Virus record (IMG/VR): IMGVR_UViG_2675903654_000023
Reading direction: 5' to 3' (one strand)
DNA length: 11,283 nucleotides
From: a virus
Taxonomy: Duplodnaviria > Heunggongvirae > Uroviricota > Caudoviricetes
Below the pieces are notes generated by a model. That model ran no database searches. It saw only the letters and a program-made list of their open reading frames with translations, and was not told the origin of the DNA. Positions within the stretch are counted from its first letter, which is position 1, and each line of letters starts with the position of its first letter. The position numbers were made by a program, and so were the translations under genes. Below, piece by piece: positions 1 to 9,582 of the stretch.

Positions 1-516
1 ATGAAATTTAAAAAATGTCTTCTGCCTGTGGCAATGTTAGCGTCATTCACTCTGGCAGGATGCCAGTCAAATGCTGACGATCATGCCGCCGATGTTTATC
101 AAACCGATCAACTGAATACCAAACAAGAAACTAAAACCGTTAATATTATTTCCATTCTTCCCGCAAAAGTTGCCGTAGACAACTCCCAAAATAAACGGAA
201 CGCACAAGCCTTCGGCGCGCTTATTGGCGCAGTCGCTGGCGGTGTTATCGGCCACAACGTCGGTTCTGGCAGCAATTCCGGAACGACGGCAGGGGCAGTT
301 GGCGGCGGAGCTGTAGGCGCGGCAGTGGGTTCTATGGTGAATGATAAAACCTTAGTGGAAGGTGTTTCTTTAACATATAAGGAAGGCACCAAAGTGTATA
401 CCTCTACCCAGGTGGGTAAAGAGTGCCAGTTTACGACAGGTTTAGCCGTTGTTATTACCACAACGTATAACGAAACGCGTATTCAGCCAAATACTAAATG
501 TCCTGAAAAGAGCTAA
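1..516 (+). CDS. Outer-membrane lipoprotein with a glycine-zipper core (YcfJ / 17-kDa-antigen-like)
   Basis: ORF from the track. The N-terminus has a signal peptide ending in a lipobox (LAGC). The central segment is Gly/Ala-rich (GAVAGGVIGH...GGGAVGAAVG), typical of glycine-zipper lipoproteins. The ATG is at window position 1, so no upstream RBS can be inspected. Confidence 0.65.
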   Translation: MKFKKCLLPVAMLASFTLAGCQSNADDHAADVYQTDQLNTKQETKTVNIISILPAKVAVDNSQNKRNAQAFGALIGAVAGGVIGHNVGSGSNSGTTAGAVGGGAVGAAVGSMVNDKTLVEGVSLTYKEGTKVYTSTQVGKECQFTTGLAVVITTTYNETRIQPNTKCPEKS

Positions 517-531
517 TAATCAGGAGGAGTC

Positions 532-1071
532 ATGAAGAAAGTTTTTCTTTGCGCCATCTTGGCCTCCTTAAGCTATCCGGCTATCGCCTCATCATTGCAG
601 GATCAACTCTCTGCTGTAGCAGAAGCTGAACAGCAAGGTAAAAATGAAGAGCAAAGGCAGCATGACGAATGGGTCGCGGAGCGCAACAGGGAAATCCAGC
701 AAGAGAAGCAACGTCGCGCAAATGCCCAGGCCGCCGCTAACAAAAGAGCGGCAACGGCAGCGGCAAATAAGAAAGCTCGTCAGGATAAACTGGACGCCGA
801 AGCCTCTGCGGACAAAAAACGCGATCAAAGTTATGAAGATGAGCTACGCAGCTTAGAGATTCAGAAACAAAAACTGGCGCTGGCAAAAGAAGAAGCCCGC
901 GTTAAGCGAGAAAACGAATTTATCGATCAGGAACTGAAGCACAAAGCTGCGCAAACCGATGTGGTGCAATCTGAAGCTGACGCCAACAGAAATATGACTG
1001 AAGGCGGTCGCGATCTGATGAAAAGCGTGGGCAAAGCAGAAGAGAACAAATCGGACAGCTGGTTTAATTAA
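532..1071 (+). CDS. Secreted/periplasmic highly charged protein of unknown function
   Basis: Strong RBS (AGGAGG) 5-6 nt upstream of the ATG at 532. N-terminal signal peptide (MKKVFLCAILASLSYPAIASS) followed by a Lys/Glu/Gln/Ala-rich low-complexity body. Starts 16 nt after the upstream lipoprotein gene, so the two are probably one operon. Confidence 0.6.
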   Translation: MKKVFLCAILASLSYPAIASSLQDQLSAVAEAEQQGKNEEQRQHDEWVAERNREIQQEKQRRANAQAAANKRAATAAANKKARQDKLDAEASADKKRDQSYEDELRSLEIQKQKLALAKEEARVKRENEFIDQELKHKAAQTDVVQSEADANRNMTEGGRDLMKSVGKAEENKSDSWFN

Positions 1072-1108
1072 TCGATGTTAGTAACTTCAAGCCTATGATT
1101 CTTGAAGA

Positions 1109-1142
1109 TAAAAAACCCTCTGTAATAACAGAGGGTTTTGTT
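1109..1142. terminator. Bidirectional intrinsic terminator between the convergent 532-1071 gene and the lysis cassette
   Basis: Seen directly: A-run, then stem CCCTCTG (1116-1122), loop TAATAA, stem CAGAGGG (1129-1135), then TTTTGTT. The hairpin plus U-run reads the same way on both strands. A second hairpin (CTTCAAG-N9-CTTGAAG, about 1084-1107) lies just upstream. Confidence 0.6.
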
Positions 1143-1290
1143 CATTCATAGTGCAGGGATTAAAATCATTCCCACTCAATTATTTACGGATACCATAACC
1201 AATTGAGTGGTAACATTTTTCCAAAGCTCAATTTTTCCCGTACCGTTTTATATACCGTCACCGGAAATCAGTACCATGAAAAATACCATG

Positions 1291-1773
1291 CTATCTGGTC
1301 AGGGTGTCATACTGTTTTTCGCAGACTCTTCCGGCTTCGGCTGCCCGGTCAGCATACTCTGCCAGTTGTCTATTTCTCTCGAGAGATTTGCTGAACACGT
1401 CGGCAAGCAAAACTCCGGTATCTGCGGCTGACGCCCCAGCGCCGACAATGGCGTTATATTGCCTGAGCTGCTCACGGATGGCAACGAGCTGTCGCTGCAA
1501 CCTGCCAGCGCGAGCGGCAGCATCAAGAGCATCACTGCGCGCCTGATCGATTCTCTGCTGCGCTTCACGTTCATTGGTCACTTTCTCCTGTTCGTAGTAC
1601 TGACGAACTTTGTCTTCTTCGGCTTTGCGGTCTTCTTCCGCCTGCGCATACCCGGCATCGTACTGGCGGCTGCCGTGTATATTCCAGGCAACCACTCCGA
1701 CGATGAACAGAGCAGCAAGCATCAACACGATAAGCAGCTGTTTCCAATATGATTTTACGAATGTCAGGATCAT
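1291..1773 (-). CDS. Rz-like i-spanin (inner-membrane lysis protein)
   Basis: N-terminal transmembrane segment ([18 protein letters not shown]) followed by a charged, coiled-coil-like periplasmic domain. Its ATG overlaps the endolysin stop in an ATGA junction at 1770-1773. It is the last gene of the lysis cassette. Confidence 0.75.
1299..1574 (-). CDS. Rz1-like o-spanin lipoprotein embedded in a different frame inside Rz
   Basis: Lies entirely within the Rz gene in another frame. Encodes a signal peptide with lipobox LALAGC and a Pro/Ser-containing mature part. The longest ORF starts at 1574; an internal ATG at 1532 ([12 protein letters not shown]...) is the more likely start. Confidence 0.55.
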   Translation of the reverse strand: MNVKRSRESIRRAVMLLMLPLALAGCSDSSLPSVSSSGNITPLSALGRQPQIPEFCLPTCSANLSREIDNWQSMLTGQPKPEESAKNSMTP

Positions 1774-2399
1774 ACCGTCAGCACCTTACTGGCAGTGATG
1801 TATCGCGCTCGCCGGTCGTCTATGCCGTTCCTGCCACCATTGATAATCAGAGTTACACGAGCAATATCGCCGGTATACTTCATGCAGCCTTTGCCGGAGA
1901 AGAACCACGCCGCGCTACGAGCCGCGTATTCGTCCTGCGCCAGCAGTTCAGGATTCTCCAGCAGGTCAACTTTCAGACCGTTTCCACAGTCACGATAGTT
2001 ATTCAAACCGGTAATCTGGATAAGCCCGCGCCCACGGTAATTCCAGCCATCGCCGGGAGCATTGTTACCCATGCGTTTGCTGTATACCAGATTTGCGATC
2101 GCGCGCTGGCGCTCAAGTGGCAATGGTGGTTCACCAGCACGGCGACCCAGTGCATTAGCCTGCCCCTGAGTGAGACGCCCAGCCCGAACGAAGTTAGCTA
2201 GACCGCTGACACTGTAGTTGAAATTCTCCTGCAACCGGGTGAAACCACCAGACTCATGCCCGACCTGAGCAATAAACATTGCCTGATCTTCGGTTTTGCT
2301 GATACCAAACTCTTTCATCGCAGAAGTTATATGCGAGAACCAGCGTGCGGCCAACGCCTCGCTAATACCAGCAGCTCGCTGGAATTGTTTAATCTCCAT
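1770..2399 (-). CDS. Phage endolysin, glycoside hydrolase family 19 (chitinase-like lysozyme)
   Basis: The protein carries motifs recalled from GH19 phage endolysins ([24 protein letters not shown]). RBS GAGG lies 7 nt upstream of the ATG at 2399. It overlaps the upstream membrane-protein gene by 11 nt and the downstream Rz gene by 4 nt. Confidence 0.85.
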
Positions 2400-2697
2400 G
2401 TTTAGACCTCGTTATTTTAAAAATCTGCACAACGTTACCGCGCGTTTTAATAACCGCAGCAAGCATGACAGCGTTGATAATGACCTCAGATAAATCCACA
2501 GCCATTGGCGTGCGTAACCAGATTGCATAAACGACACGAACAGGAATACTGGCCGCAGCAACAATCAGGAAATAAGCAATCCACCCACCCCATCTTCGGT
2601 GTTGAGATCCGTTACGCTGGAAAGTGACAACGCGAATTGCTATGCCAGTACAAATAACTGCATTGGTGATAATTAAAAAAAGGTCATGCGTTACCAT
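2389..2697 (-). CDS. Holin-like small membrane protein (three predicted transmembrane segments, charged C-terminus)
   Basis: Three hydrophobic segments and a basic C-terminal tail ([19 protein letters not shown]). Sits immediately upstream of the endolysin and overlaps it. A GGAG-type RBS precedes the ATG at 2697. Confidence 0.55.
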
Positions 2698-3097
2698 CGT
2701 CTTTTCTCCCCGGAATTAACTCGCGTGGATTATCGGAACGGTGATAGAGCCATATACCAATACGAACAGCGACAATTGCCGACACGAACGCACCTGCAGA
2801 AAATACAATCCCTTTCTCGAATGAGTCCTGCGTGATGGTTGGAATCAGGCTAGCTATGCCGATAAGAATTGATGCTGCCGGTTTGTAGAAAAGAAGGCCG
2901 CAGAGAAAGCTGAGCATCGACAGAAGAACACGACGACGGATTGGGTATTCTACTGCAGAGGTAACAAAAATTACCGCACCAGCCAAAGATCCCAAAGCGA
3001 CCTCTGGAGGAACTCCTGCTATCACCGCAGCAAGAGAACTAACGCTAAGCCACTGATTTAATGATTCACTTGTTAGACCAGCAGACATTGCAACCAC
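2684..3097 (-). CDS. Lysis-associated polytopic membrane protein (holin or antiholin candidate)
   Basis: Four to five hydrophobic segments and a charged C-terminus; it is the first gene of the lysis cassette. The longest ORF begins at a GTG (3097-3095); an ATG three codons downstream (3088-3086) has a GGTGG Shine-Dalgarno 5 nt upstream and is the more likely start. Confidence 0.5.
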   Translation of the reverse strand: MVAMSAGLTSESLNQWLSVSSLAAVIAGVPPEVALGSLAGAVIFVTSAVEYPIRRRVLLSMLSFLCGLLFYKPAASILIGIASLIPTITQDSFEKGIVFSAGAFVSAIVAVRIGIWLYHRSDNPRELIPGRKDDGNA

Positions 3098-3191
3098 CGT
3101 TTACTGTTCATGACACCCCCTTAGTTGAGTGGGTATATCATACACAATAAACCGTAAACGGATAATCAACCTAAGATTAGCCCGAACAAAG

Positions 3192-3206
3192 TTACCTTAT
3201 AGGTAA
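3192..3206. promoter_or_regulatory. Palindromic operator-like site TTACC-N5-GGTAA (copy 1 of 4)
   Basis: Seen directly: gTTACCttataGGTAAa. It lies in the AT-rich intergenic island between the lysis cassette (minus strand) and a small plus-strand ORF. Confidence 0.45.
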
Positions 3207-3271
3207 AACTCTTACTGTTGAATGTTAATTTATATAGGTTTCCCTTTCGGATGTTAAAGAGTGGGAATCGC

Positions 3272-3442
3272 ATGAACACAATAACTAAATTTGGGCACTG
3301 GTTTATCATGGCGATGGGGATTGCATGCCTGTTAATGCTAATAACAGGCATTTCCTCTGCGAAAGTTTTTGTTGGTGTTGATATCGCAATGATAGCGATA
3401 TGGCTATGGGATGAATATTCCCACTGGAAGCACAAGCAATAG
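3272..3442 (+). CDS. Hypothetical small membrane protein (56 aa, two hydrophobic segments)
   Basis: Internal ATG of track ORF 3218-3442. A purine-rich stretch (AGAGTGGGAA) precedes the ATG. Lies in an AT-rich island convergent with the tailspike gene. Coding status is uncertain. Confidence 0.3.
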   Translation: MNTITKFGHWFIMAMGIACLLMLITGISSAKVFVGVDIAMIAIWLWDEYSHWKHKQ

Positions 3443-5518
3443 CTATTTATTGGAAAATAAATTCTCAAGCTTGCTAATTCTGGCTTCCAGTTTCTGCCGC
3501 TCTCTCCGCTGATATGCAGCTTCCAGCCAGAGACATTGATCAGCACGAATGCCCCATCGGTTTCCCGCTGGCGTAACCAGCAGCCTGCCCTCAGGCTTTA
3601 CAATCTCTGTCCAGGCTTCTTTCTTGACGATTTGCTGCATTGATACATCCAAAATAGAAGAATACTCGGCAGGATGCTCAACCACTTCCTCAGGGATAAT
3701 CTCGTACTGGTCTTGCCATTCATCGTAACAGAGCAGGCCAAATCGAGTCCCGTCGATTCCTTTCGACTCGAATGCCTCTTTAACCTGTTGTGCAATAACG
3801 CCAAAATGCCAACGTGCGCCAGCCTGCCCCTTTTCTTTAATAGAATTCAGCCACTGAAAAGCGATTATTGAAACTTCCCCCCACGCGTCAAGTATTGCAT
3901 TTTCATCAACAGCCATGAATTTCGATAGCTCTGATACTTTAATCGGCTGTGATTTTTCACGGCCGTCTGAAGTATTAATTGAACCAGTGCCTGCAAAAAC
4001 GGTGCTCCAGCGGTTTACGATATCACCCAAAGGTGTTGAGTTATCATTACCAGGGGTTAACGCGCGCTGGGAGACTGCGGCAGGCTTAATCTGGAGACGC
4101 ACCTCATTTCCGGATACAAATTTTAAACTAGTGTCGCCTGTTGTACCTAAATAAGTCCCGTTTACATCAGTTGTCACAAAGCCGTGAAAGTTACCGGTCG
4201 CCCCGCCGCGCCAGCTTATGGCGTAAGTTAATTGCGACGGATCTATGCCAAATCCTGCAGCGCCATTCTGGAACATCTTGCCAAGGTTCGGAGCATAATA
4301 GCCATAGCCATTCATCTGTCGGACATTTATAGCTACGTTCGCTCCCCGAGCCGCTTTTAAATGCTCAATATAAACGCCGCTTTGTTCACCTACAATGCCA
4401 GTACTTCCAAGCAAAACATCATTGATATATACCCCTCTGCGGTCGAGTATCGTCCCGGTTCCATTATGTGATGGGGATGAATAAAATCCCTGCATGTTTT
4501 CCAGAGTTCCGCTTCCGGCGTAATTAATACGATCTTGAAAGCTGAAAGCGTGATTTTGAGCGTGGCCGCCAGTTATGATTAGCGTTGAATCAAAAGCTCC
4601 ATATCCGCCATAGTCGGAGGCCTGATTAATAACTGTCTTATCTGCGAAGGCGTGGCAGTTCGTTGGCGCGTTATCGATACGACGAGCCACGTTTATGGCG
4701 TCTCTTAGCGAATCAGGCGACGGCCATGTAGCGCCAGCCACGCCGACTGGCTGGTCGCCAACTATAAGATTTCCGTACGTGGTTGAGATGCGTAAACCGC
4801 CTGTCATTGTGTCGCCGCGCTTGTCGACTGCGTTACCTACCCTTTTGACTCCATCAGGCTGAGCCAGGGTTATCAGTACGTCAGAGGCGCTACCGCTTTG
4901 TGGAACAACAGTAATTGGATTTCCTGATGAATCGAAAGCCAATAGCTGATTTGCTCGCATCGACACGCCAGGAACTGGGCCTACATAACTCTCCGGAACC
5001 CGTAGCGTGCGGTTGAAGTTAACGTTGTTAAGCGTATCAACATAATTTTTAGTGGCTGCATCTTGGGGGGTTGAAGGATCGCGTAAGTTTCTGATGTAAT
5101 TGTTAAGCGCATCATAATAATTTGCCACGAATGACGGCTTACGCAGCGCCAAGCTAAACCAACTTCGAACCTGCTGGATCAGCATCGTTAGCTTATCAAA
5201 AGCATCCTCATGCACTTCTGCAAAGAACTTACCCTGATTACGCAAATCAGTTTCCTGCGTAACCGGGAGCTCTCGTGATATAGAAATCTGATAACCGCTA
5301 ACCAATGCCTTCGACAGAATTATATTGCCACCATTGTATCCTCCAGCCCCAGTAACTATGTAATCAGTGTCAAGAATCAGCTCTGTGATGTTCTCGTTCA
5401 GGTCAACAACCTGCACTACTAAATCAGATTTCTGGAAAATCCTGAAGGTATAAGGGAATGTCGTTGTAACACCGTTACCGGTGTATTCGTTGTGGTCAAC
5501 TTCGGTTGAGACCGTCAT
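3443..5518 (-). CDS. Tailspike / tail fibre protein with a C-terminal intramolecular chaperone (peptidase S74-like) domain
   Basis: 691 aa. The N-terminal roughly 120 aa resemble the particle-binding N-domain of podovirus tail fibres/tailspikes (YTGNGVTTTFPYTF...). The central region is Gly/Asn/Thr-rich, consistent with a beta-helix receptor-binding or depolymerase domain. The C-terminal roughly 175 aa start with an S-D-x-R-x-K motif (SDGREK, about residue 517, nt about 3968-3970), the hallmark of self-cleaving chaperone domains. RBS GGAG lies 7 nt upstream of the ATG at 5518. Confidence 0.85.
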   Translation of the reverse strand: MTVSTEVDHNEYTGNGVTTTFPYTFRIFQKSDLVVQVVDLNENITELILDTDYIVTGAGGYNGGNIILSKALVSGYQISISRELPVTQETDLRNQGKFFAEVHEDAFDKLTMLIQQVRSWFSLALRKPSFVANYYDALNNYIRNLRDPSTPQDAATKNYVDTLNNVNFNRTLRVPESYVGPVPGVSMRANQLLAFDSSGNPITVVPQSGSASDVLITLAQPDGVKRVGNAVDKRGDTMTGGLRISTTYGNLIVGDQPVGVAGATWPSPDSLRDAINVARRIDNAPTNCHAFADKTVINQASDYGGYGAFDSTLIITGGHAQNHAFSFQDRINYAGSGTLENMQGFYSSPSHNGTGTILDRRGVYINDVLLGSTGIVGEQSGVYIEHLKAARGANVAINVRQMNGYGYYAPNLGKMFQNGAAGFGIDPSQLTYAISWRGGATGNFHGFVTTDVNGTYLGTTGDTSLKFVSGNEVRLQIKPAAVSQRALTPGNDNSTPLGDIVNRWSTVFAGTGSINTSDGREKSQPIKVSELSKFMAVDENAILDAWGEVSIIAFQWLNSIKEKGQAGARWHFGVIAQQVKEAFESKGIDGTRFGLLCYDEWQDQYEIIPEEVVEHPAEYSSILDVSMQQIVKKEAWTEIVKPEGRLLVTPAGNRWGIRADQCLWLEAAYQRRERQKLEARISKLENLFSNK

Positions 5519-5694: not shown

Positions 5695-5713
5695 ATTGCA
5701 TGGAGAAGATAAG

Positions 5714-5971
5714 ATGCAGCAGTATCACTATCCACTGGAAGACGGATTTACCGAAAGGATTCACACGCCGGGAGGCGTCAGGTCACTGGTGGAGGGATCG
5801 CACTTGATGAAATTACTCCGGGATCTCGATAAGGATGGATTTAATGTCGATGGCCCACTTGCCGAACTGACTGCACTGATTAACTACGTCACCAGCTCAC
5901 AGATGTCTATGCGGGATCTGCAAACACATCTCGACTATTGTGCCGAACAATTACGAAAACAAACCAGATAA
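5714..5971 (+). CDS. Small stand-alone antirepressor C-domain protein (85 aa), probably SOS-controlled
   Basis: RBS GGAG (5702-5705) precedes the ATG at 5714. The protein aligns without gaps over about 72 residues with the shared C-terminal domain of the two larger antirepressor-like proteins, at roughly 45-50% identity by eye (IHTPGGV...LMKLL...DG..V.G..AELT...RDLQTH..Y). The LexA box lies immediately upstream. Confidence 0.6.
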   Translation: MQQYHYPLEDGFTERIHTPGGVRSLVEGSHLMKLLRDLDKDGFNVDGPLAELTALINYVTSSQMSMRDLQTHLDYCAEQLRKQTR

Positions 5972-5974
5972 GGT

Positions 5975-6003
5975 TTGCAATTACCAAGTGGAGTGCTTAT
6001 ATT
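5975..6003 (+). promoter_or_regulatory. Sigma70-type promoter of the plus-arm sRNA-like element
   Basis: Seen directly: -35 TTGCAA (5975-5980), 17-nt spacer, -10 TATATT (5998-6003). It begins 4 nt after the stop codon of the 85-aa gene. Confidence 0.5.
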
Positions 6004-6017
6004 TACCTTTGCGGTAA
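6003..6017. promoter_or_regulatory. Palindromic operator-like site TTACC-N5-GGTAA (copy 2 of 4), overlapping the -10/+1 of the sRNA promoter
   Basis: Seen directly: ATTTACCtttgcGGTAAAT, an extended 7-5-7 palindrome. Confidence 0.5.
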
Positions 6018-6130
6018 ATTTACATCGCACTCCTCTTGTGCCATAGTAATCGGGCACTGGCAAAATCCAGTGCCGGGATTGGCGTCCCGGATTACTACAG
6101 AGGCACATATGCCGCATAAGCGGTTTTTTT
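6010..6130 (+). ncRNA. Candidate structured small RNA / terminated leader (plus arm)
   Basis: Bounded by the promoter above and an intrinsic terminator (GCCGC-ATAA-GCGG followed by seven T, about 6111-6130). The core (about 6004-6097) is more than 95% identical to the inverted copy at 8993-9086. It contains stable hairpins (GGCACTGG-CAAAAT-CCAGTGCC and CCGGGA-TTGGCG-TCCCGG). No conserved ORF spans it. Confidence 0.5.
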
Positions 6131-6225
6131 ATGTGTAAAACGCACCTATTCTATGGTGGGCTGTGTGGGGGCACCGAAAGGTGCGCCGGGTCCTTTGTAG
6201 CCGGTTACGCCAACTCTGCACAGTT

Positions 6226-6256
6226 CACCACCAACCGATTGGCGTCGGTAGTGGTG
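6226..6256 (+). promoter_or_regulatory. Leader hairpin upstream of the Bro-N antirepressor RBS, loop UUGGCG
   Basis: Seen directly: CACCACC-A-ACCGA-TTGGCG-TCGGT-A-GTGGTG. The loop is identical to the hairpin-2 loop of the plus-arm sRNA element. The hairpin ends about 27 nt before the ATG at 6284. Confidence 0.45.
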
Positions 6257-6283
6257 ATTAACCTAACTACAAAGGTGATCACT

Positions 6284-6970
6284 ATGACTGCTAACGTAAC
6301 CCCATCTGTTTTTCATTTTGAATCAGAAGCAACCATTCGAGCCATTGTTATTGATGGAAATCCTTGGTTTGTTGCCAAAGACGTTATTAAAGCTCTTCAA
6401 CTGACAAACCCCACTATGTCAATAAAATCTCTTGATGATGATGAAAGGGCTAAATTTAACTTAGGCCGTCAAGGCGAAACCAATATTATCAACGAGTCAG
6501 GCCTCTACACACTGATCCTCCGCTGCCGCGACGCAGTGACACCAGGCACTATCCCCTACCGCTTTCGTAAATGGGTTACAGGTGAGGTTCTTCCTCAGAT
6601 CCGCCGCACCGGAAGTTACATTAAAAACTCGCTCCCGCAGGAAGAACGCATAAAGATGGTTGCCGACCAGGTAGCCAACGCCACGGCGTCAGCAGTGATG
6701 AAGGCGATGAAGATAGAGAACAAAACCTACAGCGCCCCGCTGAAGCCAGGCTACCGCAGCCTGATTCACTCGCCGTCTGGTGTTCTCGGCCTGACGGAGA
6801 ACTCACTGCTGATGAATCTGCTGAACCAGTTACAGGAAGACGGGCACGACGTATCGGGCGCGGCGGCGGAGCTGACCACCATGTTCTGCTACATCGTCGG
6901 TGTGAGCAAATGCCTGCGTGATATCCAGACGCACGCGGAGTACATCAACGACAAGGCTGGGTTCTTCTGA
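6284..6970 (+). CDS. Antirepressor-like protein: N-terminal Bro-N domain plus shared C-terminal domain
   Basis: Internal ATG of track ORF 6131-6970, with RBS AGGTGA 5 nt upstream. The N-terminus has Bro-N motifs (IRAIVIDGNPWFVAKDV...GLYTLILRCR...FRKWVTGEVLPQIRRTG). The C-terminal roughly 80 aa are identical to those of the convergent gene at 8144-8800. Confidence 0.8.
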   Translation: MTANVTPSVFHFESEATIRAIVIDGNPWFVAKDVIKALQLTNPTMSIKSLDDDERAKFNLGRQGETNIINESGLYTLILRCRDAVTPGTIPYRFRKWVTGEVLPQIRRTGSYIKNSLPQEERIKMVADQVANATASAVMKAMKIENKTYSAPLKPGYRSLIHSPSGVLGLTENSLLMNLLNQLQEDGHDVSGAAAELTTMFCYIVGVSKCLRDIQTHAEYINDKAGFF

Positions 6971-6993
6971 CGGGCGGCGGCACAGGGATGTGC
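6730..6993. repeat. Inner inverted repeat, left arm (partner 8121-8385)
   Basis: Seen directly by reverse-complement comparison. About 230 bp (6763-6993) are near-identical to the reverse complement of 8121-8352, with one mismatch noticed. Identity drops to roughly 90% over the preceding 30 bp and is then lost. It covers the shared C-domain coding sequence plus a 3' hairpin (GGCACAGGGATGTGCC). Confidence 0.85.
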
Positions 6994-7042: not shown

Positions 7043-7057
7043 TTACCTCAAGGGTAA
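7043..7057. promoter_or_regulatory. Palindromic operator-like site TTACC-N5-GGTAA (copy 3 of 4), upstream of the central module
   Basis: Seen directly: aTTACCtcaagGGTAAa. It is followed by a second inverted repeat (ACGGATT-N14-AATCCGT, 7059-7086) that overlaps a candidate promoter. Confidence 0.45.
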
Positions 7058-7117: not shown

Positions 7118-7297
7118 ATGCGAAACGAAAAATTGCAGATGCGTAGAGCGCAAGCTGCCGCAAGACGTTCTTTCAATGGAAGCGTAGAGTACGTAAAAGT
7201 TACTATGACAAAAGATCACGCAAGTCGCGTATCCCGCGCTTTCTTTGATTCTCGTAACAATAAGGAAAATTATGAGTTCGTCTGCGTCGCAGAATGA
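7118..7297 (+). CDS. Small basic protein (59 aa), candidate antitoxin or regulator of the central module
   Basis: Absent from the ORF track, presumably below its length cut-off; hand-translated as MRNEKLQMRRAQAAARRSFNGSVEYVKVTMTKDHASRVSRAFFDSRNNKENYEFVCVAE. Strong RBS GAGG 7 nt upstream of the ATG at 7118. Its 3' end overlaps the start of the next gene by 26 nt in a different frame. Confidence 0.45.
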   Translation: MRNEKLQMRRAQAAARRSFNGSVEYVKVTMTKDHASRVSRAFFDSRNNKENYEFVCVAE

Positions 7298-7817
7298 TAA
7301 AAATCAAGTTGTCAGATATAAGGGTCGAGTGTTGCATACGCAAAATTTCTCGGCCCTTTGTGCATCTGATCTTGAGCTGAAGAAAGTATCTGATGCCTTT
7401 ACCCAGTATTGGAAAACGGGATACCATCCATCTCTTGGTAAAGATGCTGCATTTGCTCGTCCGACAGAAATGCTTAAACTAAATGTCAGGCATACTCATG
7501 TCGATAACCAAGACTATATTCCAGAAGATAGTGATAAAAAACACACTGGTAAAAAATCATCTTGGGATGCATGGAAAAATATAGCGTCTGTACAAGTAAA
7601 ATGCATACCAACAAGTGATTGCTTTTTAGTTTATTCGGTAAATCACAATCGTGATGCGCTGGTTATGTTTTTTGTTGACGCAGATGCTCACAACATAACT
7701 GAGCAAGAAGAGTTTAAAGAGGAAGCAATCACTATCAGTTATCAATTCTTTGAGAAAACAAAAACAGAACCAATGCCTTTAGAAGAAGATCTTTTTTCTG
7801 ATAAATGGAAGGAATAG
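7272..7817 (+). CDS. Hypothetical protein (181 aa), candidate toxin; weak YafO-like resemblance
   Basis: Internal ATG of track ORF 7245-7817, with RBS AAGGA 5 nt upstream. AT-rich coding sequence. Segments (GKDAAF...LNVRHTHV...CFLVYSV...ALVMFFVDADAH) resemble motifs I recall from YafO-family toxins; this is from memory and unverified. An intrinsic terminator follows directly. Confidence 0.55.
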   Translation: MSSSASQNDKNQVVRYKGRVLHTQNFSALCASDLELKKVSDAFTQYWKTGYHPSLGKDAAFARPTEMLKLNVRHTHVDNQDYIPEDSDKKHTGKKSSWDAWKNIASVQVKCIPTSDCFLVYSVNHNRDALVMFFVDADAHNITEQEEFKEEAITISYQFFEKTKTEPMPLEEDLFSDKWKE

Positions 7818-7837
7818 CCCGCAGCGCGGGCTTTTTT
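7817..7837 (+). terminator. Intrinsic terminator of the central module
   Basis: Seen directly: stem GCCCGC (7817-7822), loop AGC, stem GCGGGC (7826-7831), then six T (7832-7837). It overlaps the stop codon. Confidence 0.7.
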
Positions 7838-7909
7838 GTGGACGAAACAAAAGTCAGTGCTACACTCATTGACGCCACATTGAGGTGGCTTATAGATGGA
7901 AATTTCACA

Positions 7910-8071
7910 ATGAAAAAAGCATTTGCTGCACTGTTCGTTTTGTTGTCTCTGGTAGCTTCAACTCAGGCCTTTGCCGGTCGTTGTCAGCACGACAGCGATA
8001 CTGCCGCTGACGGCTCCCGCTGCGGTGGGCGTTCTGCGGATTCCCGCCCGGGCGGCGGTGGCATTCGTTAA
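7910..8071 (+). CDS. Hypothetical small secreted peptide (53 aa precursor, about 31 aa mature, two Cys), possibly leaderless
   Basis: Internal ATG of track ORF 7805-8071. Signal peptide MKKAFAALFVLLSLVASTQAFA followed by a Gly/Arg/Asp-rich tail. A candidate promoter (TTGACG 7869-7874, TATAGA 7891-7896) would place the transcript start only a few nt before the ATG. No convincing Shine-Dalgarno. Coding status is uncertain. Confidence 0.3.
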   Translation: MKKAFAALFVLLSLVASTQAFAGRCQHDSDTAADGSRCGGRSADSRPGGGGIR

Positions 8072-8120: not shown

Positions 8121-8385
8121 GCACGTCCCTGTGCCGCCGCCCGTCAGAAGAACCCAGCCTTGTCGTTGATGTACTCCGCGTGCGTCTGGATATCACGCAG
8201 GCATTTGCTCACACCGACGATGTAGCAGAACATGGTGGTCAGCTCCGCCGCCGCGCCCGATACGTCGTGCCCGTCTTCCTGTAACTGGTTCAGCAGATTC
8301 ATCAGCAGTGAGTTCTCCGTCAGGCCGAGAACACCAGACGGCGAGTGAATCAAACTGCGGTAGCCGGGCTTCAGTGGGGCGCTGT
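8121..8385. repeat. Inner inverted repeat, right arm (partner 6730-6993)
   Basis: Reverse complement is near-identical to 6763-6993; see the left-arm entry. Confidence 0.85.
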
Positions 8386-8800
8386 ATTCTTTTTTGTCTT
8401 CCAGCTTGATCGCCTCCATAATGGCGGGCATGAAGCCTGACAAGACCTTCTCCACTTTTGTTTCTTGTTGTCTTAAACGTTTCTCGCATTCAATGAAGTA
8501 GCGTCGTACCTGACGACCTTTTTCGTTACGCTCGACCATCGCCAGCTCTTTGGCTGTATCAAGGGTGAGGTGGTACTCTTTGCGGTTGTGGCCGCCTCTA
8601 CCAGATGTTTGCTTTCCCAAATTGGAAAGCAAAATATAGTCTTGATTTTCAATGAATTCGTATTCTGATATGCGATTTGTAATCCATGCTGCAAACACCT
8701 TTTTAACACCTAAAAAAGCGTGCAGATCGCGGGCATTACAAAGTAGGGCTGTTTCGTTAGATATAGTGCCGTTGAATACGGGGATGAGTTGAGCGTTCAT
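8144..8800 (-). CDS. Antirepressor-like protein: N-terminal AntA-type domain plus shared C-terminal domain
   Basis: The N-terminus matches the AntA/AntB antirepressor N-domain pattern (LIPVFNGT...[10 protein letters not shown]...W...EYEF...[27 protein letters not shown]). The C-terminal roughly 80 aa are identical to those of the 6284-6970 product. RBS GGAG 8 nt upstream of the ATG at 8800. Confidence 0.85.
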
Positions 8801-8859: not shown

Positions 8860-8958
8860 AACTGAACGGAGTTGGTCTTACCGGCCTAAGTGGTACCGGC
8901 GTCCTTTCGGACCCCCATTCAGCCCACCATAATTCTGGCATGACTGTGCTATACGCAT

Positions 8959-9080
8959 AAAAAAAACCACGTCTGGCGTGGTATGCGCCACTTAGTAATC
9001 CGGGAGACCAATCCCGGCACTGGATTTTGCCAGTGCATGATTACTATGGCACAAGAGGAGTGCGATGTAAATTTACCGCA
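8959..9080 (-). ncRNA. Candidate structured small RNA / terminated leader (minus arm)
   Basis: Inverted copy of the 6010-6130 element. Its own intrinsic terminator on the minus strand is ACCACG-CCAGA-CGTGGT followed by eight T (plus coordinates about 8959-8982), different in sequence from the plus-arm terminator. Hairpin-2 reads CCGGGA-TTGGTC-TCCCGG. Confidence 0.5.
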
Positions 9081-9087
9081 AAGGTAA
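9073..9087. promoter_or_regulatory. Palindromic operator-like site TTACC-N5-GGTAA (copy 4 of 4), overlapping the -10/+1 of the minus-arm sRNA promoter
   Basis: Seen directly: TTTACCgcaaaGGTAA. It is part of the outer inverted repeat. Confidence 0.5.
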
Positions 9088-9116
9088 TGATAAGCGCTAA
9101 GAAATATTAAAATCAA
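9087..9116 (-). promoter_or_regulatory. Sigma70-type promoter of the minus-arm sRNA-like element
   Basis: Minus-strand reading: -35 TTGATT (plus 9111-9116), 18-nt spacer, -10 TATCAT (plus 9087-9092). Sequence upstream of the -10 is not homologous to the plus-arm promoter, yet a promoter is retained. Confidence 0.45.
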
Positions 9117-9234: not shown

Positions 9235-9582
9235 GTGCCATTCCACGGCGCAGAGCTTTATGTTGTCAATCACAACGGCGAACCGTATACCCCAATGAAA
9301 CCTATCGTTGAGGGAATGGGGCTAGACTGGAAATCTCAACATAAGAAGATTTCTCAACGCTTCTCGAAGGGTATGGTGGAAATCACCATACCTTCTGCCG
9401 GTGGGGTGCAAGCCATGATTTGTATGGCTTTACGAAAATTGGCAGCTTGGTTGAACAGCATCAGCCCTAACAAAGTCCGCCCTGAAATCCGCGAAAGTAT
9501 TGAAACATCAACCGTATCGATATCGACACGGTTGATTATGACGGTAACTTATTTCCGTGTGTCCTATTTCTCCCGCCACTAA
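9235..9582 (+). pseudogene. Probable remnant of an antirepressor N-terminal (P22_AR_N-like) domain gene
   Basis: The track ORF starts at a GTG with no RBS. Residues about 8-85 (LYVVNHNGEPYTPMKPIVEGMGLDWKSQHKKISQRF...LRKLAAWLNSISPNKVRPEIRE) resemble antirepressor N-terminal domains as I recall them. The last roughly 30 residues look like out-of-frame read-through. It ends back-to-back with the convergent 98-aa gene. Confidence 0.35.

Follow-up and report, generated by a model that had tools for sequence, protein, structure and literature searches.

The stretch of DNA analyzed here (the window) comprises 11,283 nucleotides of a Caudoviricetes virus record (IMGVR_UViG_2675903654_000023), and the element under study lies on its minus strand at positions 8956-9116. 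This element is a second, inverted copy of IsrK, a regulatory RNA already known from phages and the "a1b1" counterpart of the C4 antisense RNA, and is positioned 5' of an antirepressor gene (ant). Very probably, the minus-strand IsrK constitutes the first part of a three-part switch of the immI type, which is faced by a plus-strand unit at 6054-6970. The element as such is not new but an ordinary member of a known family, detectable by any Rfam scan.

The coordinates and scores of both units are given in Table 1. An Rfam scan with curated thresholds identified isrK and C4 above their gathering scores in both arms, and both isrK matches extend over the full length of the model. The two IsrK copies fold as the family expects, with two 5' hairpins and a Rho-independent terminator; their folds have z-scores of -3.27 (minus) and -3.36 (plus), and none of 200 shuffled sequences folded equally well. 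The model scores and the folds thus lie well outside chance expectation. The C4 of the minus unit has a fold z-score of -5.52. An antirepressor gene as the regulated output was found in both units by Pfam and PHROG, its activity being predicted. The minus-strand protein matches Pfam AntA (E = 4e-26) and PHROG 377 'anti-repressor Ant' (E = 3e-66), as well as phrog_450 at its C-terminus.

The two units were also analyzed for the matching of their pairing segments, which are named a and b following the P1 nomenclature. The segments a1, in the loop of IsrK hairpin 2, and b1, in the linker before the terminator, repeat the segments a2 and b2, which sit just 5' of the antirepressor start codon, with b2 covering the Shine-Dalgarno region. 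In both window units the single strand a' and the hairpin loop b' of C4 are exactly complementary over 7-9 nt to a1/a2 and b1/b2 of their own unit, whereas a comparison within the window revealed no such exact complementarity between the plus and the minus unit. This matching extends to homologues. An exact-pattern scan of viral contigs for the junction between hairpin 1 and hairpin 2 yielded 120 loci, corresponding to 114 distinct units, and C4 follows isrK in 104 of these as judged by a simple pattern. The reverse complement of a' is found as a1 in 104 of 104 units and as a2 in 101 of 104. The b' loop occurs in 38 distinct forms, with a mean cognate pairing of 8.5 bp to b1 and 8.1 bp to b2, versus 4.8 and 4.5 bp for non-cognate combinations. 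Altogether at least 4 a-types and 38 b-types were observed, in mixed combinations. Duplex energies of whole segments favour cognate pairs too but include conserved stems, and the exact-complement results were used instead. Judged by these complementarities, the ribosome-binding site of the antirepressor co-evolves with IsrK and C4 as a triplet.

The same order of elements is known from the immI region of the phages P1 and P7, where the tandem promoters P51a/P51b come with the operator Op51 (Citron & Schuster 1990; Rfam RF01695, RF03163). The GenBank record of P1 (NC_005856) annotates the operator Oc4, the tandem promoters P2c4 (P51a) and P1c4 (P51b), a1, b1, c4, a2, b2, icd and ant, and P1 matches c4-a1b1 (51 bits), weakly isrK (35 bits), and C4, the last above the Rfam threshold. 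As in the window, a1 occupies the loop of hairpin 2, b1 is part of the linker, which leads into a terminator-like hairpin, b2 is located at the ribosome-binding site of the first downstream gene, and tandem promoter-like sites approximately 40-44 bp apart stand beside a site resembling a protein-binding site. When P1 and P7 are aligned, each of the six segments (a1, b1, b', a', a2, b2) differs by two bases in a compensatory manner, and the two window arms likewise differ by compensatory changes in a1/a'/a2 and b1/b'/b2. In contrast to P1, the window units harbor no icd-like gene with Rho-dependent polarity between b2 and ant; the ATG of the antirepressor (8800 and 6284) directly follows b2, and the predicted target of C4 is the antirepressor's own ribosome-binding site. 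The antirepressors belong to the Bro-N or AntA type rather than to Ant1/2, the palindrome TTACC-N5-GGTAA does not resemble the C1 operator, which is asymmetric, and the heteroimmune pair resides within one genome instead of being split over two phages.

The second relative is the isrK-orf45(STnc1160)-anrP locus of the Salmonella prophage Gifsy-1 (NC_010392), in which an Rfam scan gave isrK, c4-a1b1 and C4 in the same order, followed by the antirepressor gene anrP. In both systems, an RNA of 77 nt forms two hairpins and ends in an intrinsic terminator, 6 nt separate the -10 of its sigma-70 promoter from +1, and a C4-family RNA and an antirepressor gene come next. In addition, the pairing of G28 and G31 in loop 2 of Gifsy-1 IsrK with C162 and C159, which was defined by the mutants G28A/C162U and G31A/C159U (PMC4825925), corresponds to the a1-a' pairing of the window. 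The Gifsy-1 locus lies downstream of the Q antiterminator, whereas the minus unit is located between tailspike and internal virion protein genes of an Escherichia coli podovirus-like prophage, which harbors two inverted units of different specificity, and the window has an extra upstream promoter-like site and a palindrome. From the shared order of isrK/c4-a1b1, C4 and antirepressor, the sequences of the window units, of the Gifsy-1 isrK locus and of P1 immI are read as one and the same architecture. The comparative set, with a1 matched in 104 of 104 units and 38 types of the other element, supports the view that Gifsy-1 IsrK and the P1 a1b1 element are the same device. For phage P4 the comparison was based on PMC4825925 and general knowledge. 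SeqA of P4 has been named a structural homologue of IsrK (PMC4825925), and the processed CI RNA of P4 similarly pairs with complementary repeats (seqA, seqC) upstream and downstream of itself. The output in P4 is premature transcription termination of replication genes, whereas translational control of the antirepressor is predicted for the window, which contains no P4-type genes.

By analogy with P1/P7 and Gifsy-1, transcription from the IsrK promoter would mostly halt at the terminator and give the short IsrK, and read-through would produce C4, processed out of the transcript, together with the ant mRNA. In P1, C4 is processed out of the operon transcript by RNase P, and the window has the C4 3' end ...CACCACCA. 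In the window, C4 would then pair with a2 and b2, occlude the ribosome-binding site and block translation of ant. The short IsrK, bearing the same two sequences, would compete for C4, or for its segment within the long transcript, so that ant translation would be switched on and the prophage tipped toward derepression. In Gifsy-1, IsrK supplied in trans raises translation of anrP 139-fold (Hershko-Shalev et al. 2016, PMC4825925).

Several observations weigh against the assignment of the element to such a switch. The mechanism published for Gifsy-1 needs the translation of orf45, which starts at an AUG in the 5' stem of C4, overlaps the start of anrP with its end and is coupled to anrP (PMC4825925). 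This AUG is conserved in the C4 5' stem of both window units, but the frame that it opens (6153-6200, plus strand; 8930-8919, minus strand) comprises only 15 codons in the plus and 3 codons in the minus unit, so that this step cannot work in the window in the published manner. Because orf45 is absent from the window units and their AUG frames are this short, the coupling mechanism published for Gifsy-1 cannot hold for the whole family. A simpler reading is that b' directly occludes the ribosome-binding site of the antirepressor, much as at the P1 icd site, and this probably represents the general mechanism. Furthermore, the c4-a1b1 motif (Weinberg et al. 2010, PMC2864571) was found in both copies only at a permissive threshold, just short of the gathering score of 46.7, whereas P1 reaches 51.0 bits and Gifsy-1 48.1 bits. 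The start site, the termination efficiency and the processing of C4 at the window locus are all inferred, the mutual independence of the two units is a prediction from base-pairing alone, and the sequence is compatible both with IsrK as a decoy in trans and with IsrK as mainly a product of attenuation.

The latter is the core of an alternative modelled on P4, which we regard as possible, if on balance unlikely. In an attenuator, C4 would bind the nascent a1 and b1 and favour termination before its own gene and ant, generating a negative feedback with the short IsrK largely as a by-product. The position of b1 directly 5' of the terminator is consistent with such an arrangement, and among 72 distinct units the nascent linker together with the 5' arm of the terminator folds at -6.1 kcal/mol, compared to -3.2 kcal/mol in controls with shuffled linkers. 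The P4 CI/seqA analogy was also raised by the authors of the Gifsy-1 study, who considered that STnc1160 might modulate termination at the IsrK terminator (PMC4825925). However, the 5' arm of the terminator takes part in the alternative hairpin no more than in the shuffles (2.28 versus 2.21 nt), the 139-fold activation of anrP in Gifsy-1 was obtained with IsrK in trans, and constitutive STnc1160 did not relieve the toxicity of IsrK (PMC4825925). The attenuator and the decoy model are compatible and not mutually exclusive.

An earlier note on this stretch had described the minus-strand element as the inverted twin of a plus-strand copy, with a core of 94 nt more than 95% identical between the arms and diverged flanks. 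Both statements hold. Positions 6004-6097 differ from the reverse complement of 8993-9086 by 4 mismatches in 94 nt (95.7% identity), which are located at 6052/6053 and 6083/6084, and a repeat finder independently gave the pair I2 (5992-6097 / 8993-9098, 106 nt, 93%). Upstream of the palindrome the two arms are 44% identical; the values are 96% for the palindrome and proximal promoter, 95% for the first two hairpins, 63% for the b1 linker and terminator, 67% for the structured RNA further downstream (C4) and 52% down to the start codon. The hexamers TTGATT-18-TATCAT, which had been taken as the promoter, are present at 9116..9087 on the minus strand and match 9 of 12 consensus positions. The proposed terminator stem ACCACG-CCAGA-CGTGGT was found at 8982..8966 with its T run, but only 7 of the stated 8 T lie beyond the stem, as the first of the 8 T (8966..8959) is the last base of the stem. 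At the equivalent place the plus unit carries the stem GCCGC-ATAA-GCGGT.

The picture changes with respect to the promoter and the 5' end. The sequence TTTACA-17-(TGc)CATAGT is, as judged from the homologues, the family-wide promoter. Across the 114 units, a -35/-10 pair whose -10 ends 6 nt before +1 scores on average 8.6 of 12, with at least 8 in 98 units, whereas the background mean is 5.2. The same geometry occurs in 54 units with upstream sequences unrelated to the window. This promoter sits inside the core and is identical in both arms, which contradicts the proposed turnover of the promoter. The Gifsy-1 mutants are numbered from the transcription start (C18U, G28A, G31A, A107 as the first AUG of orf45, AUG119-121, C159U, C162U; PMC4825925), and under this numbering the Gifsy-1 promoter reads TTGACA-17-TATATT with 6 nt to +1. 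Because this numbering fits only with +1 at position 1 of the Rfam isrK model, the start sites of the window are predicted by transfer at 9036 and 6054. The median distance from +1 to the end of the U-run is 77 nt in the viral-contig units, and in the window the proximal promoter predicts an RNA of 77-78 nt in place of the approximately 120 nt suggested before. The core of 94 nt thus consists of 50 bases of promoter and operator DNA (9086-9037 on the minus strand) and 44 bases of RNA, and because DNA of promoter and operator makes up half of the "conserved core" in such repeats and RNA only the other half, naive boundaries of small RNAs (sRNAs) can mislead. Likewise, the element is no stand-alone unit but the 5' element of an IsrK-C4-antirepressor operon reaching 8144. 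The earlier reading missed the context of the C4/antirepressor switch and the matched change in specificity, and misplaced the main promoter and the 5' end of the RNA. A mechanically called open reading frame (ORF) of 55 amino acids (aa) with a TTG start (8949-9116, minus strand) overlaps the RNA and covers promoter, RNA and terminator.

The conclusion that selection acts on a promoter-driven, terminated RNA is nevertheless supported by the homologues. An intrinsic terminator was detected in 111 of the 114 units, with 23 distinct stem sequences, and the stem of hairpin 1 covaries at 4 pairs with 8-29 double-sided changes each in 59 sequences. Since promoter and terminator are kept and hairpin 1 covaries across units, the RNA appears to be transcribed from its own promoter, terminated and selected, in line with its membership in the Rfam isrK family and with a promoter in at least 98 of the 114 homologues. 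The comparison with related phages that had been proposed as a check gave no refutation, as both promoter and terminator accompany the core in nearly all of the 114 units.

It was considered whether the distal hexamers could nevertheless drive a stand-alone sRNA of about 120 nt, whose promoter and terminator had been replaced around a retained core of 94 nt. We consider this improbable, although the distal site has some support. Within the subfamily that carries the palindrome, 37 of 55 units have a distal promoter-like site with at least 9 of 12 matches despite a spacer between the hexamers that varies among homologous units; outside this subfamily such a site occurs in 1 of 53 units, and in the background at 0.2% of positions. 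In P1, tandem promoters are annotated at a distance of 40 bp in the place equivalent to the distal and proximal sites of the window, and an RNA of 123 nt from 9080-8958 (minus strand; counterpart on the plus strand, 6010-6131) folds well (z = -5.2). However, half of the retained core (9086-9037) is DNA of the proximal promoter and operator, other subfamilies keep the proximal site without the distal one, and the element is never alone, as C4 follows in 104 of 114 units. Moreover, when the RNA of 123 nt is folded, b1 is masked in a helix of 15 bp between GAUUACUA..UGGCGCA and the 44-nt leader of the distal start, whose sequence UGUGCCAUAGUAAUC is that of the proximal -10 region. Within the subfamily, leader and linker pair no more strongly in cognate than in non-cognate combinations (p = 0.18), and in units outside it the cognate pairing is only weakly stronger (p = 0.014). 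These two values were judged to be no evidence for selection on this pairing in the long isoform. Thus TTGATT-18-TATCAT may at best represent a second, tandem promoter of one subfamily, like P51a/P51b of P1.

The differences between the arms had been attributed to sequence turnover. They are, however, the determinants of specificity, which co-vary with C4 and the ribosome-binding region of ant, and they occur as ready-made alleles in other phages. The terminator stem of the minus unit was found in 18 viral-contig units, and 454 of 5426 complete E. coli genomes contain the unit itself. Because this allele of b1 and terminator recurs, the sequence differences between the arms point to an exchange of ready-made cassettes and not to turnover in situ. 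The same observations bear on the idea of a passive inverted duplication, with the minus copy as a silent remnant of some recent rearrangement that has no function of its own, which appears extremely improbable. The region is indeed rearranged: the C-terminal domain of the antirepressor is present three times, a P22_AR_N gene (9235-9582) is truncated, and inverted repeats of 279 nt share 96% identity. The exact twin arrangement covers at least 80% of the query in only 4 of the 5426 genomes. But the minus unit is complete, comprising promoter, RNA above threshold, terminator, C4, matched a2 and b2 and an intact ORF of 218 aa. It differs from the plus unit by changes that are compensatory in three places at once, and shares its allele with many phages.

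A further possibility is a host-directed sRNA, which would act mainly in trans on host mRNAs or sRNAs, in the manner of a prophage anti-sRNA, through the invariant loop GCAAAAUC of hairpin 1 (6061-6067 / 9023-9029). This loop is conserved across the family, with GCAAAUUC in P1, while the stem covaries and the a and b segments vary; it takes part in none of the complementarities that were found, being complementary neither to C4 nor to the ant leader. Together with the Rfam name 'Hfq binding RNA' this leaves room for a role in trans. However, all variable positions are explained by the cis-encoded partners C4 and ant, and the invariance of the loop in the viral-contig set is partly imposed by the search pattern, so that a mainly host-directed function is very unlikely. 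No host target was found, no genome-wide search for one having been made. The loop might serve as a contact for a protein or Hfq. AgvB, an anti-sRNA of enterohaemorrhagic E. coli (EHEC), was considered as an E. coli homologue of IsrK and rejected; PMC4104026 mentions neither IsrK nor antirepressors.

Within the preferred reading, an IsrK-C4-antirepressor switch in each arm, no cross-regulation is expected between the two units because they differ in both a and b. Their pairing segments suggest two switches that are orthogonal to each other, comparable as a heteroimmune pair to P1 and P7 but co-resident, and the window provides a clean natural case of two heteroimmune C4/IsrK circuits within one prophage. 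A covariance model built from 59 units was used to search 100 sources for multiple units. Inverted isrK pairs were obtained in the window, in E. coli UTME-9 (L001) and in source L072, and tandem pairs in L077 and L028. The viral contig L081 harbors four tandem isrK-C4-antirepressor units approximately 850 bp apart (2459-5095, minus strand) with the a-types UUAGCAG, UUCGCAU, UUGGCGU and UUAGCAG and four different b' loops, and is by these segments an array of differently addressed switches. All co-resident units for which a typing of both partners was possible differ in a, b or both; these are only about 10 pairs and too few for statistics. More tentatively, and with somewhat less than even confidence, the observations can be joined into a picture of one prophage with two orthogonal IsrK/C4 switches, which use a two-part a+b code and gate a Bro-N and an AntA antirepressor. 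The codes would be freely reassorted, with co-resident units never sharing both parts, and a tandem promoter in one subfamily would add a long isoform with masked b1, giving an inactive besides an active RNA. If this is true, orthogonal units would let several antirepressor circuits run in one cell without cross-talk.

The palindrome that separates the two promoter-like sites recurs in the window. The pattern TACC-N5-GGTA is present four times (3193-3205, 6004-6016, 7044-7056 and 9074-9086), compared to 0.09 expected occurrences, and among 55-60 homologous units the arms of the palindrome are conserved and its spacer is variable. Two copies are located at the isrK promoters, and one lies 5' of a middle operon (7118-7817). 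The fourth is found on the minus strand, just 5' of a TTGATT-N17-TATGAT site that precedes the holin and lysis genes. The palindrome resembles a shared operator for some repressor, and may be an operator between the two isrK promoters.

Table 1. Features of the minus-strand and plus-strand units in the window.
Feature	Strand	Position	Sequence, score or size	Basis or remark
Distal -35-like hexamer	-	9111..9116	TTGATT	consensus scan
Distal -10-like hexamer	-	9087..9092	TATCAT	consensus scan
Palindrome		9073..9087	TTACC-TTTGC-GGTAA	candidate operator; between distal -10 and proximal -35
Proximal promoter	-	9043..9071	TTTACA-17-(TGc)CATAGT	consensus scan; -10 ends 6 nt 5' of IsrK +1
IsrK-type RNA	-	8959..9036	78 nt	RF01394; fold
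isrK RF01394	-	9036-8960	67.7 bits, E = 4e-13, model 1-77 of 77	Rfam scan, curated thresholds; gathering score 50
c4-a1b1 RF03163 ('a1, b1 targets of C4 antisense RNA')	-	8997-9049	37.6 bits, E = 4e-7	overlaps isrK match
IsrK hairpin 1	-	9036-9017		
IsrK hairpin 2	-	9016-9001		
a1 (loop of IsrK hairpin 2)	-	9011-9005	UUGGUCU	
b1 (IsrK linker)	-	8995-8988	CUAAGUGG	
IsrK terminator	-	8982-8959	ACCACG-CCAGA-CGTGGU + U-run	
C4 antisense RNA RF01695	-	8934-8850	61.2 bits	Rfam scan; gathering score 45
b' (C4 hairpin loop)	-	8893-8886	CCACUUAG	
a' (C4 single strand)	-	8878-8872	AGACCAA	
C4 target a2, hairpin 3' of C4	-	8850-8837	CUGAUUGGUCUCAG; loop UUGGUCU	on ant mRNA
C4 target b2/Shine-Dalgarno region	-	8818-8809	CUAAGUGGAG; b2 CUAAGUGG(AG)	on ant mRNA
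Antirepressor gene	-	8144..8800	218 aa	AntA N-terminal domain; C-terminal domain common to plus-unit protein
Distal promoter	+	5974/5975-6003	TTGCAA-17-TATATT (or TTTGCA-18)	consensus scan; counterpart of TTGATT-18-TATCAT
Palindrome	+	6003-6017		
Proximal promoter	+	6019-6047	TTTACA-17-CATAGT	same sequence as minus arm
IsrK-type RNA	+	6054..6130		
isrK RF01394	+	6054-6130	76.8 bits, model 1-77 of 77	Rfam scan; gathering score 50
c4-a1b1 RF03163	+	6041-6093	45.1 bits, E = 2e-9	overlaps isrK match
a1 (loop of IsrK hairpin 2)	+	6079-6085	UUGGCGU	
b1 (IsrK linker)	+	6095-6103	CUACAGAGG	
IsrK terminator	+	6111-6130		
C4 antisense RNA RF01695	+	6149-6235	76.2 bits	Rfam scan; gathering score 45
b' (C4 hairpin loop)	+	6192-6200	CCUUUGUAG	
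a' (C4 single strand)	+	6207-6213	ACGCCAA	
C4 target a2, hairpin 3' of C4	+	6235-6248	loop UUGGCGU	
C4 target b2/Shine-Dalgarno region	+	6267-6275	CUACAAAGG	
Antirepressor gene, Bro-N type	+	6284-6970		Pfam Bro-N E = 4e-20; PHROG 'anti-repressor Ant'

According to the annotation of the closest complete E. coli genomes, the neighbours in the window are the host genes yfgH/yfgI, a lysis cassette, a tail protein gene and a gene for a large internal virion protein, and the twin units are positioned between the tailspike gene and the internal virion protein gene. The C-terminal domain common to both antirepressors forms an inverted repeat (I1, 8121-8399 / 6715-6993) of 279 nt with 96% identity, which could allow inversion of the intervening segment of 1.1 kb. 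Three copies of this domain (phrog_450) are present, one of them as a free-standing ORF of 91 aa (5696-5971, plus strand) just 5' of the plus-strand isrK. Three different antirepressor N-terminal domains also occur, namely Bro-N, AntA and a truncated P22_AR_N ORF (9235-9582, plus strand), which is divergent from the minus-strand isrK.

The left end of the window (1-516 and 532-1071) apparently corresponds to host yfgH/yfgI, as judged by the annotation of E. coli UTME-9. On the minus strand, and still within 1-3100, these genes appear by the same annotation to be directly followed by the prophage lysis cassette, which codes for a DUF2514 Rz-like protein, a GH19 endolysin and two holins. Between the units, the plus strand at 7118-8071 harbors an ORF of 59 aa (phrog_6685) overlapping a YafO-like toxin gene (Pfam YafO_toxin, 26 bits), and a predicted membrane protein of 53 aa (phrog_14503), followed by terminators on both strands. 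This segment may be a toxin-antitoxin or moron cassette.

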